Part shown: positions 54,601 to 60,600 of the stretch, in pieces
Position numbering within the stretch: position 1 is the stretch's first letter
How the letters are laid out: each line of letters opens with the position of its first letter
Assembly: GCF_013315695.1 (NCBI RefSeq)
Contig: NZ_CP054353.1
DNA length: 64,000 bases
DNA from: Escherichia coli
GTDB taxonomy: Bacteria > Pseudomonadota > Gammaproteobacteria > Enterobacterales > Enterobacteriaceae
Strand: one strand, 5' to 3'
Made by a program: the position numbers

Positions 54601-57600
54601 CGCTATCGCTTCTTTAGACAGTTCTGTGCCTGAAATGAGAAGTTCAGCAACCAGCAGTACTTTAACGGCCAGTAGTTCAAACGAATTTAAAAGTGATAAA
54701 TATATATGCAGTGATATTGCTGATTTGATGAGTGTGCTCGGTAGCGACTACCTCGAAATCTATGCAAATAGCGTTGAGATAATGAGCGCATACTGGCAGG
54801 ACTTCAGTGAACATATCCAAAGCAATATGGGAAAATGGACTCACTCTAATAAAAAAGGCGATGCGATAGTTTTTGACGTCAATGCATTCCAAAAAGCCTT
54901 GATGCATTTTTATTATATCGATAAATATCCTAATGGTGATTTCCACTATCATTACAATCCAGACTATGTTTTATACCCTCCGGCACCTGCTGACAAAATT
55001 GGTGTACCACTAGAAGAAGCAGAAAAATGGTGCGCCGCTTTAGGACTTCCGGTAATTCCACCCGATCCCAAACACCGCACACCTTCTCCGATTGTCGAAG
55101 TTGAACCGCAAGGTAGCGGTCTGTATGTTATTATTCCCAACCCTCAGATTATTGACAGTATGAGTCAGTCTTCAGACTCAATGGTGCATAGGGACGATAA
55201 AGGGAAGGAAAAAAATATATCTAAAGAATTCACCGGTTATGAAATAAGCACAGCTGAATACCAGGCATGGCTGGCGGGTTATAACGGCCAGGCAGAAAAC
55301 ATGAAAACCGACGTGCAGGTTATCACGACTAAATACAGTACAGCCAACTCCACCTACGATACAATTATCAAATTATTATCTTCAACCATTACTGCGTTTT
55401 TTGATTCAGCGAAAGATTATTTACGTTTCTGATTAAGTAACACCCACAATTATCGCCCACTATCTGGTCCCGAAAAATGGGACCAGCGTTTCATATTATT
55501 AAGCATCAGTTTTCATTCATTTCTTCATCACAATCTTACAAAATGAGCGTTTTTTGATAGAGCAATTCTGCCAATACTTTATTTTATATTAATCAAATTA
55601 ATACTATGAATAGAGAAAACGGAAGGAGCGTTCTATGCAACTGCAACATGGAAAAAATAATACACAACAATATATATTTGGCGACTTTGTATTAAAAAAC
55701 AATGGAATATTATTATTCAAAAACAAAGAATATCATATTCCCCCGAAAGAACTTGGCGTTATCATTCTATTACTTAATGCTGACGGTGAAATTGTTAGCA
55801 AAGAAGAGATTATCGATAAGGTCTGGAGCGCGAGTGTTGCCAGTGATGAATCTCTAACACGATGTATTTATGCATTGCGCAAACTTTTGCATGAGAATAA
55901 ACAGTGTAAGTATATCGAAACGGTCTATGGTCGTGGATACCGTTTTACTGTACCTATTGTGATTGTGACCGATAATGAACCGGTAAAGTCGACCACCACT
56001 CTTGCCGTTTTTCCCTTTCGTACTGAAGGTTCGATCAATGTTCTAAAACTCCATTACGAACTTGTCCAGGGCCTTTCAAAATATGCTTTTTGTGGTTTAG
56101 ATATTTTACCCGCTTCGGTAACAAATGAGGCCAGTGATTTCTCCACCATCCATCAGTTTATCAATAAAACAGGTCCAGAATATTATATTATGGGTCAGGT
56201 CGTTCACTATGGTAAAAACTGGCGTTTATTTATTGAGTTAATTCATGCCAGAACACATAAATTGATTGATCATCAAAGTATTGATTTCAACCCCGATAAT
56301 CCTCTTTCCGTATTATTATCACAAGTAATTAATATTCTTATTGAAAAAATACCCAATATTAATTTTAAATCTATTAATACACAACAAATGCCATCTCTGG
56401 ATTCTGCTGTTATGTATATGAATGGCAGAATGGAAATGTACCGTTATACACCAGAGAGTTTGAAACGAGCATTAGTAATATTTAGAGATTGTGTGAGTAC
56501 GCAACCGCAAAATACCTTGCCCTACTGTTGCCTGGCGGAATGCCATATATCATTAGCCCTCCTTGGACTCAGTGAACAAAAACAAGCAATAACTACGGCA
56601 GTAACCTCCATTGAAAAGGCTCTGGAAATTAACCCTTCAAATTCTCAGGCATTGGGTTTACTGGGTTTAATCAGTGGGCTAAAAGATGAACATTCAGTGT
56701 CTAATGTGCTATTTAAGCAAGCACATTTACTCAAACCTAATTCGCCAGACGTTTATTATTATCAGTCTCTGCTATGTTTTTTGAACGGTGACCTAGCAAG
56801 AGCATTTAATTTAATAGAAAAAAGCATTGCTCTTGAACCCAATAAAATGGGCATAAGCATTCTTAAATTAATGATACTTTATTACACATCCCCCCTCGAT
56901 AACGCGATATCTTTTGCATTAAATCTTAACAGTCAAAACACCTGTAATAATCCAATTATTACCTCTATTCTGGCTATGTTCATGGCACTGAAAGGACATA
57001 ATGACAAAGCCAAAAGTTGGTAATGACTCCAACTTATTGATAGTGTTTTATGTTCAGATAATGCCCGATGACTTTGTCATGCAGCTCCACCGATTTTGAG
57101 AACGACAGCGACTTCCGTCCCAGCCGTGCCAGGTGCTGCCTCAGATTCAGGTTATGCCGCTCAATTCGCTGCGTATATCGCTTGCTGATTACGTGCAGCT
57201 TTCCCTTCAGGCGGGATTCATACAGCGGCCAGCCATCCGTCATCCATATCACCACGTCAAAGGGTGACAGCAGGCTCATAAGACGCCCCAGCGTCGCCAT
57301 AGTGCGTTCACCGAATACGTGCGCAACAACCGTCTTCCGGAGCCTGTCATACGCGTAAAACAGCCAGCGCTGGCGCGATTTAGCCCCGACATAGCCCCAC
57401 TGTTCGTCCATTTCCGCGCAGACGATGACGTCACTGCCCGGCTGTATGCGCGAGGTTACCGACTGCGGCCTGAGTTTTTTAAGTGACGTAAAATCGTGTT
57501 GAGGCCAACGCCCATAATGCGGGCTGTTGCCCGGCATCCAACGCCATTCATGGCCATATCAATGATTTTCTGGTGCGTACCGGGTTGAGAAGCGGTGTAA

Positions 57601-60600
57601 GTGAACTGCAGTTGCCATGTTTTACGGCAGTGAGAGCAGAGATAGCGCTGATGTCCGGCGGTGCTTTTGCCGTTACGCACCACCCCGTCAGTAGCTGAAC
57701 AGGAGGGACAGCTGATAGAAACAGAAGCCACTGGAGCACCTCAAAAACACCATCATACACTAAATCAGTAAGTTGGCAGCATCACCCAAAAGTTTATTGC
57801 TTAAACTTGAGCCTGAACATGGTCTTGATTACACCTGTGTTAACTCGCTTTATACGAAGTTTCTGATCTATGGCGCATCTATAAAAAATGACATTATGAA
57901 GTTACTGGCAAATATTAACACTAACAAAATCAATGGTGTGATCTTGCCGTTAATTTACACTGTTTATGGTAAGAAAGAATATGAAAAGCGCTGGCAACAA
58001 TTAATTAAAGAGAATGATTTATGGTCAAATGTTTTGCTTCATGACCCCCGTTTACTCAGTGTGAAAAACGAATTTAATACTATTGGTGTGATGCGTACTT
58101 CTGCGTAATAACGAATATAAATTGCCCTGCTGATGCAGGGCAATTTAGTGATTACTTCGTTAATAATACTCTACGCACAAGCCAGAGGACTTTCCTGTTC
58201 CAAGCTCTGATATACCAGTTTCAGGATTAAATTTCTCGTGTACTCCCATGAGCTGAGTGCTTGTCCAATAATCCGTACCGCTAAAAGCGTTCCCATAAGT
58301 TTTTAAATTACCATATTCGCCCCACAACGTACCTACTTTTCGCGGTACTACCCCACCGCTTGGCCGCTGCGCTAATTCTAAAGATGACGGCATTTGACCA
58401 TAGCTACATGAAGTGTTTATGATATCCCAGGTATTACTACTGGTAGCACCTAAACTAGTAAACCATTTTTTAATCTTGAATTTAAATACAACATCATTCC
58501 CTTTACCATTCTTGGGTTTCCCGGTAATAGTAACTTCACTTCTTATCAGCACAGATAATGTTACTTCTCCATTACTGTCAACATTAATTCCATAAATCCC
58601 AGCCGTCCAATTATAATCCGTATTTTTCATATTATGGGTTAGTAACAGCGTGAATTTTGCACCATCAAACCCTGTTTCCGGAAAACCATCTGTCGCCCTG
58701 AATTTTACACCATTAACACTCAGCAACTCGACTTCCACAAAAGGAAGGATGGTATAGGATGGTTGTCCGTATATACGCCAACCTTTAATCTCCATAAATG
58801 AAGTTAAATTTTCTCCTTCTTGGTAGGCCATATATGTACGTTCATATATGCCATCACCCACATATCTCCATTTTTCCCCTTCTTTTTTTTCTACATTTTG
58901 TAAGTACACTGTATCATCCAGCAAATCCAGACCGTTATCCACCGGATTTCCAAAATCATCAACTAATAAAACACTGACAGGTAAATCCGCCCCTTCCACT
59001 ACTAAAACTTCTCGTATACGAAGCTGTGAACCAAGCGGACTCACTTCACCTGGTTTGATAGTGTAATTGTTTGAATAATTGGCATCGCTCCAACCAGCCA
59101 TCTTCAGTTGCGCATTCAAATTCGCTTCCGCAAAATGCGCCATATACTGTCTTTGATATTGCCCATTGCCGTTGTAAACCCAATTATTGCCCTGGATAGG
59201 ATCCGCATTCCTGACTTGTACGTTTTCCTCATTAAGCTGAACAACACCATCAGTAATAAAGTTACCCTGGGCATCTTTAAGAACAACGGTCACCGTTATG
59301 CTATCCCCAGCGATATATATCGTTTTGTCCGCGACAATCGTGGATTGATTTTTTGCCGCTGCACCTGGTTGTATTCCGTATAACGAGGACTTAATCTCCG
59401 TTGCCCATGTTTTTAATTTCAGACTGGCAACCAGATTTTCCTCGGCAACCCATGCTGTCCAGACAATGGTATATTCACCATTATTCTGCTCGACCCACCG
59501 CATAGAATCGGGAGTTGCGCCGCCTACCGCGAAACTATCAATATAAGACTCGATGACTTCTGATGTCAGCCCTAAAGCAGGGTTACCAAACTCATCCCGC
59601 AACGTTATTGTGACGGTTAATGGCTCCCCGGCGATATATGCCGATTTATCTGTCCTGATAGCAGAATTTGCCTGCACCGGAGCACCGCTGTGGATGGAAT
59701 AACTCTCTGATTGTTTACTGCTGCCCCATTCAGACAACTTCAGCGTCGCGTGGTGAGAGTCTCCCGCCATTTGCGCCGACCATGTAGCAGTATAAACACC
59801 GGCGGTTTCAGACCATCCTCCTGAACGTACGGCTCCTTCTACTGTTACGTTATCACCAGACAATAAGGACTCGCCCCCTTCAACCAGGTTACCGTGCGCG
59901 TCTTTCAGCGTCACAGCGACGGTTATAGTGTCACCAGCGGTGTAGGCGTTTTTATCCGTAGCGATAGTTGATGTGGCTTGCGCCGGAGAACCGGACTGTA
60001 TGTCATAGCGATCTGACGTTACGCCATCACTCCACGTCTGCAATTGCAGGTTGGCGTGCTGATTGGTACTGGCAATCGTCGCCATTCGGGTTGTGGTATA
60101 CACGCCACCTGATTCAACCCAGCTTCCCGTTTCTGACGGGTCAGTGCCAGCCACCGTCAGCACACCATCAGCGGCTAACTGTGAAGCTGCACCGGTTACC
60201 AGATTATCGAACGCATCCCGGAGCGTTACCGTGATGGTGATTGTCTCTCCAACCGTATAGTTCGACTTATTTGTTTCAACGGTTGAAGTGAGCCGCGATG
60301 CATCACCAGGTACAAAGGTGACGTTCTGGCTCTGGCTACTGTTGTTGATGCTGGCGGTGACTGTACTGGTGCCCGCCGTCTGGCTGGTGACACTGATCTC
60401 CACCGTGCCGTCCGGCTGCGTGGTGACCGTCGGAGCAACCGTTGCGCTGTTGCCCGCCAACACGCTGACCGTCTGCCCGGCAAGCGCATTACCGTTAGCA
60501 TCGGTGACCTTCACCTGCAGCGTATTCGCCGTCGAACCGTCTGCCACCGCGTTATCCCGGATGACCTCCAGTTCAGCGATCTTCGCTGTCCTGACATCGG

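Follow-up and report, generated by a model that had tools for sequence, protein, structure and literature searches.

An IS1A insertion interrupts the HilA-family regulator gene eilA in a lineage of Escherichia coli

The eilA locus

The DNA analyzed here, called the window throughout, is a stretch of 64,000 nucleotides from Escherichia coli contig NZ_CP054353.1, and our subject is eilA, the gene for a HilA-family transcriptional regulator, together with the insertion sequence (IS) that lies in its 3' part. The gene belongs to an island with the order selC, setC, yicL, nlpA, yicS, eicA, eipB, eipC, eipD, eilA, and convergent air/iatC, which is the gene order of the published selC-B/eip island (PMC7058095), and in the annotation of relatives nepI follows air/iatC. 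The open reading frames (ORFs) of eicA and eipB-D are equal in length to those in intact relatives. The eilA gene of this strain is a disrupted member of the HilA/EilA group, its C-terminal module being encoded beyond an IS1 element and no longer joined to the rest of the protein (Table 1).

Table 1. Positions of eilA, its IS1A insertion, and neighboring features in the window
Feature	Position	Strand	Description
selC (tRNA-Sec)	45774-45868		
Cut-short eilA ORF	55635-57023	plus	461 native codons, then Trp (TGG) and TAA across the IS1 junction; 462 aa
Target-site duplication, left copy	57011-57018		CAAAAGTT; 8 bp
IS1A	57019-57786	minus	complete element
IS1 inverted-repeat arms	57019-57041 and 57764-57786		imperfect, 23 nt
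insB frame	57034-57537	minus	167-aa ORF; NF033558 model positions 75-199
insA	57456-57731	minus	91-aa ORF; N-terminal part of NCBIfam NF033558 (model positions 1-81) and IS1 zinc-binding domain
A6C programmed -1 frameshift motif	57474-57480	minus	AAAAAAC; motif found in sequence
Target-site duplication, right copy	57787-57794		CAAAAGTT; 8 bp
Displaced eilA 3' part	57795-58108	plus	codons 462-565 and stop; undecayed; in frame after excision
GC-rich hairpin between the eilA and air/iatC stops	58120-58147		perfect 12-bp stem, 4-nt loop: AAATTGCCCTGC-TGAT-GCAGGGCAATTT; read from sequence
air/iatC (eaeX), 3' two-thirds or more	58160-64000	minus	cut by window end; RefSeq annotation in AF3, NRZ94505, and MSB1_4I

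The inserted element is exactly 768 bp long and is a complete IS1A: annotated IS1A copies on many E. coli chromosomes and plasmids match it at 100% identity over its whole length. Its transposase genes are directed opposite to eilA, such that the right inverted repeat (IRR) abuts the 5' part of eilA and the left inverted repeat (IRL) ends at 57786. An imperfect inverted repeat of about 23 nt is typical of IS1 ends, and the two arms here (GGTAATGAC... and GGTGATGCT...) are 78% complementary. The GC content of the element is 53%, compared with 36% for eilA and 39% for the surroundings of the insertion site. Through a -1 frameshift, the insB frame would yield InsAB', and an IS1A copy in strain NRZ94505 (NZ_OZ501598.1) carries the RefSeq annotation "programmed frameshift." As the insA and insB frames and the frameshift site are all intact, the IS1 may still be mobile, and the copy borne by eilA can be described from its sequence as complete and potentially active. 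In length, inverted repeats, frames, A6C site, 8-bp duplication, and AT-rich target it is like other IS1A insertion alleles, and the insertion site alone is particular.

BLAST found no IS1 copy in the 64-kb window besides this one; the possibility of another IS1 near the beginning of the window, raised by a 167-aa ORF at 23-526, was rejected on the same result. A 111-aa ORF (57773-58108) begins with a TTG start inside the IRL end of IS1 and reads on into eilA's displaced 3' part.

At the left junction, ...GCCAAAAGTT leads into GGTAATGACTCC..., where IS1 begins, and at the right junction the element ends in ...GGCAGCATCACC and gives way to CAAAAGTTTATTG. The empty site in E. coli MSB1_4I holds a single CAAAAGTT within an uninterrupted eilA. 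The repeat finder returned a 9-nt repeat (CCAAAAGTT) and not one of 8 nt, because the final C of IS1 is by coincidence the same as the base preceding the left copy; with the canonical IS1 length of 768 bp, 8 bp of the target are duplicated. The probability that an exact 8-bp repeat would stand at two fixed positions by chance is about 1.5e-5.

The insertion point lies between codon 461 and the second base of codon 462, and in the eilA frame the junction reads GAC AAA GCC AAA AGT T/GG TAA TGA CTC C, where the slash marks the boundary with IS1. Both the final Trp and the TAA stop of the cut-short ORF are therefore supplied by the IS1 end. When IS1 and one repeat copy are removed in silico, an ORF of 565 aa ending at 58108 is obtained, and the restored protein is residue for residue the public protein P0001, annotated "HilA family transcriptional regulator EilA" and present on 444 contigs, among them the 5,278,133-bp chromosome of MSB1_4I. 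The intact gene is 1698 bp long in MSB1_4I and NRZ94505, and work on strain 042 gives lengths of 565 aa for EilA and 458 aa for its paralogue YgeH (PMC4210603). An earlier note on this DNA, made from the sequence alone, had described a complete 768-bp IS1 in the 3' part of eilA, an 8-bp direct repeat on either side of it, a TAA formed by the IS1 end, and an in-frame ORF of about 565 aa continuing through 58108 after excision, all of which is borne out by these comparisons.

The 500 nt on each side of the insertion are 100% identical to both MSB1_4I and AF3, and the 19 kb to its left are 100% identical to MSB1_4I. As neither the displaced 3' fragment nor the flanks show a mismatch to MSB1_4I, the insertion is recent.

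Distribution of the interrupted allele

Placing the junction in the context of public genomes addresses whether the allele exists outside this assembly. This part of eilA is present in 730 of 5,426 complete RefSeq E. coli genomes, and a junction query composed of 150 nt of eilA and 150 nt of IS1 recovered the eilA::IS1 junction, at a coverage of at least 80%, from none of the 5,426. The only record to reach that coverage, NRZ94505, was set aside as a different allele, with IS1A in the eilA-iatC spacer and eilA intact. The exact 37-mer across the junction (GACAAAGCCAAAAGTTGGTAATGACTCCAACTTATTG) likewise has no match in JGI metagenome contigs. It could be supposed from these absences, and from the fact that assemblers can misplace a multicopy repeat such as IS1, that the copy in eilA is an assembly artefact or was acquired in the laboratory by the sequenced culture and does not occur in natural populations.

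Such an origin is, in our estimation, extremely improbable. The perfect 8-bp duplication exactly bounds a full-length element, which misassembly does not yield. In addition, an exact-protein look-up places the 462-aa product on 10-18 ENA/Logan contigs, and the product is a marker of the allele, because its last codon and stop need the IS1 end to be attached. In all three of the contigs that were read, which come from different ENA/Logan samples, the left junction is identical and the sequence ends after 22-108 nt of IS1, as happens where a short-read assembly meets a multicopy repeat. One of them (L003) matches the window without a difference along all 4492 nt. The shared junction in independent contigs, together with the exact product, thus identifies the allele as real and not an artefact of assembly, and the artefactual or laboratory origin is effectively refuted. 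The eilA::IS1 allele is recent, circulates naturally, and is confined to a small lineage. The literature found on eilA and IS1 consists only of papers that list virulence genes and IS elements separately, and none of these describes eilA::IS1.

Architecture of EilA and the lost module

Pfam assigns an OmpR/ToxR-type winged helix (Trans_reg_C) to residues 31-104 of EilA (E = 8e-16) and gives weak tetratricopeptide repeat (TPR) matches at residues 320-426. An AlphaFold model built with 50 homologues has a mean predicted local distance difference test score (pLDDT) of 82 and divides the protein into a predicted winged helix (residues 11-112), a middle domain of alpha/beta type (121-238), paired helices (255-465), and further helices (474-564). 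The junction, after residue 461, falls inside the predicted helix 456-465. The cut-short product retains the winged helix, the alpha/beta middle domain, all predicted TPR-like helix pairs to residue 453, and half of helix 456-465, and loses the final 104 residues. With Foldseek, the model matches TPR proteins and the DNA-binding domain of CadC. Structure and sequence searches returned no solved structure of a HilA-family protein; besides generic TPR proteins and the periplasmic domain of CadC, they matched only isolated DNA-binding domains of OmpR/PhoB, CadC, and ToxR.

Family models place the protein with HilA and EilA even after the cut. On NCBIfam NF009037 (HilA/EilA; cutoff 589 bits), the restored protein scores 953 bits and the cut-short protein 823 bits, the latter covering model positions 2-462 of 553, short of the full-length architecture. 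On the YgeH model, NF008870 (cutoff 800 bits), EilA reaches only 228-229 bits, compared with 1085 bits for YgeH of K-12. By these scores EilA is not a YgeH, and the likeness between the two is one of length and architecture only.

Alignment of EilA with its relatives illustrates how consistently the lost part is retained. All 42 long-form relatives, which include proteins of Escherichia albertii, Yersinia, Chromobacterium, and Pseudomonas and extend down to 25% identity to EilA, keep 87-104 residues aligned past the junction. The earlier note had given a HilA length of 553 aa, which is the length of the NCBIfam model, and had proposed that the product keeps the winged helix and most of the TPR region and loses about 104 residues, in agreement with the Pfam match and with predicted TPR-like helices extending to about residue 461. 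It had also held that intact eilA homologues ending naturally at the junction would speak against truncation. No eilA orthologue found here ends there, whereas the ETT2-encoded paralogue YgeH (34% identity to EilA) and other short family members do end at this point.

Effect on EilA function

Taken as a whole, the observations are best explained by a recent IS1A transposition that left a hypomorphic or null allele of eilA, an explanation that we hold to be reasonably probable, because the module retained by every EilA/HilA-type orthologue is lost. A functional cost is plausible, as the module is kept in 42 of 42 long forms and the cut falls within a predicted helix. Loss or strong reduction of EilA function is the somewhat favored outcome. 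In this explanation, IS1A transposed recently into eilA in a lineage that at this locus is all but identical to MSB1_4I and AF3, and the insertion made the 8-bp target duplication, detached the last 104 codons, and supplied the Trp-TAA end, to give the 462-aa product. Transcripts of eilA would now run antisense into IS1, and their product would be without the C-terminal helical module kept by every EilA/HilA-type orthologue.

The physiological context is provided by enteroaggregative E. coli (EAEC) strain 042, in which the same gene has the same island context and the same 565-aa length that is obtained here after restoration; the gene here differs in being cut after codon 461, with the last 104 residues gone and a non-native Trp at the end. 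In the passages of PMC7058095 and PMC11068852 that cite Sheikh et al. 2006, EilA of 042 activates eipB-D, eicA, eaeX/air, and eivF/eivA, and eilA mutants of 042 show less adherence and less biofilm. Activation of the eip/air promoters and of those of the second E. coli type III secretion system (ETT2) has been published for the intact EilA of strain 042 only (PMC4210603, PMC7058095). It may follow that EilA-dependent activation of eicA-eipBCD, of air, and of the ETT2 genes eivF and eivA is reduced in the lineage described here, and that eilA::IS1 would be one more step in the mutational attrition of eip and ETT2.

Several observations weigh against a loss of function. The short members of the alignment, namely YgeH of K-12 (458 aa), P0049 (459 aa), P0059 (460 aa), and P0067 (474 aa), have only 0-8 residues aligned past EilA residue 461, and positions 11-447 of the 458-position YgeH model align to EilA 14-446. 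The ends of these short relatives are no more than about 10 residues from the junction, which places the breakpoint at a natural architectural boundary. The lost module is also the least conserved part of the protein; mean pairwise identity is 25% there, 41% in the TPR region, and 58% in the winged helix. Moreover, the YgeH of EAEC 042 is an activator of ETT2 genes and, like EilA, takes the place of HilA in Salmonella (PMC4210603). As short YgeH-type members end at the junction and YgeH is functional, loss of function is the less certain.

It is therefore conceivable that the 462-aa product retains activity as a regulator of YgeH length, being able to fold, bind DNA, and activate its targets, such that the eip/air regulon is not switched off, with control possibly altered if the missing C-terminal module is regulatory. 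We regard this as a real possibility, if not a probable one. YgeH is co-extensive over its full length with the cut-short EilA, shares with it the winged helix, middle domain, and TPR-like region, and ends at the same point of the alignment; YgeH of EAEC 042 is interchangeable with HilA and EilA in Salmonella (PMC4210603). The retention of all parts up to residue 453, the score of 823 bits, above the family cutoff, and the fast evolution of the missing module can each be read in the same way, and the in-frame stop spares the transcript from being a non-stop mRNA. Yet YgeH is only 34% identical to EilA, its short length is native and not made by an insertion, and it may have evolved stability without the module, which every sampled EilA/HilA long form keeps. 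The antisense course of eilA mRNA into IS1 may also lower its stability or the expression of the gene. Finally, the persistence of the allele in 10-18 independent assemblies would fit an active product, but a neutral pseudogene would persist equally.

A related proposition starts from the position of the cut, which removes exactly the module that distinguishes long from short forms. The 462-aa protein could, on this basis, be a working, domain-deleted EilA that differs in activity or control, although we put this forward only tentatively and consider it rather doubtful. Reduction or loss of EilA function through the IS1A insertion remains the explanation that we favor.

Surrounding genes and other eilA lesions

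Downstream of the displaced 3' part of eilA, the hairpin between the two stops is probably, to judge from its sequence, a bidirectional terminator for the convergent eilA and air/iatC genes. The latter encodes an inverse-autotransporter adhesin. Its repeat core (60-62 kb) has a GC content of 57-61%, with 35-40% in the rest of the island, and its RefSeq name varies by genome between IatC, EaeX/Air, and "Ig-like domain-containing protein."

At the other end of the island, no large island adjoins selC, and for the region corresponding to 45774-46503 of the window MSB1_4I annotates only a 129-bp rhuM remnant, so that strain 042's phage-like selC-A island is missing here. Further upstream, between yicH and yicI, a block on the minus strand (34662-41476) has no counterpart in K-12; the annotation of MSB1_4I gives it a sugar isomerase, a ROK-family protein, two aldolases, fructose-type IIC/IIB/IIA components of the phosphotransferase system (PTS), and a BglG-family antiterminator.

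Other lesions of eilA are found in public assemblies. A change of codon 196 from TGG to TAG (W196*; L007:1501-2088, window-equivalent 56220-56222) gives a 195-aa protein (P0006) in 61 blocks of the collection. EilA products that stop at codon 220 exactly at contig ends (L011-L014, around window position 56294; P0007) occur in 59 blocks, and a C-terminal partial EilA (P0008) begins at the same residue where P0007 ends; these codon-220 ends may reflect another repeat or IS insertion in eilA. AF3 (NZ_OZ547117.1), second only to MSB1_4I in closeness, has a frameshift annotated in eilA, a change from A7 to A6 (L001:8118-9814, window-equivalent 56344), which may be a homopolymer sequencing error. 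In NRZ94505 (L002:4465-5292), the spacer that carries IS1A is short and both eilA and iatC are intact, so that a second, independent IS1 lies within about 100 bp of the 3' end of eilA. Published examples comprise an eilA frameshift in a blood isolate of sequence type 59 (ST59) (PMC7058095) and a transposase insertion of 1.3 kb in the paralogous gene ygeH of avian pathogenic E. coli (APEC) (PMC11068852).

Conclusions

IS1 insertions are among the commonest mutations of E. coli, and eilA::IS1 is a previously undescribed instance of a familiar event, the entry of IS1 into an AT-rich, horizontally acquired gene. It fits the known decay of eip and ETT2, and as such it is routine attrition, an ordinary disruption at the level of the strain. 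Mutational attrition of the ETT2/eip loci is attributed to Ren et al. 2004 in the passage of PMC7058095 that cites that work. As there, an IS or point lesion affects a regulator gene of a cryptic second type III secretion system; here, by comparison, the insertion removes only the C-terminal module, at a natural domain boundary, and the DNA-binding and TPR parts are not destroyed.

In practical terms, the eilA::IS1 junction, for example as the 37-mer given above, is a clean lineage marker, and virulence-gene screens that score eilA as present can include disrupted alleles. As YgeH-type relatives end naturally at the breakpoint, the pair formed by eilA::IS1 and its near-isogenic intact counterpart in MSB1_4I is suited to testing the role of the C-terminal module. 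Should the 462-aa protein prove to be a working, domain-deleted EilA, the lineage would constitute a ready-made experiment on the unexplained C-terminal module of HilA-family regulators.

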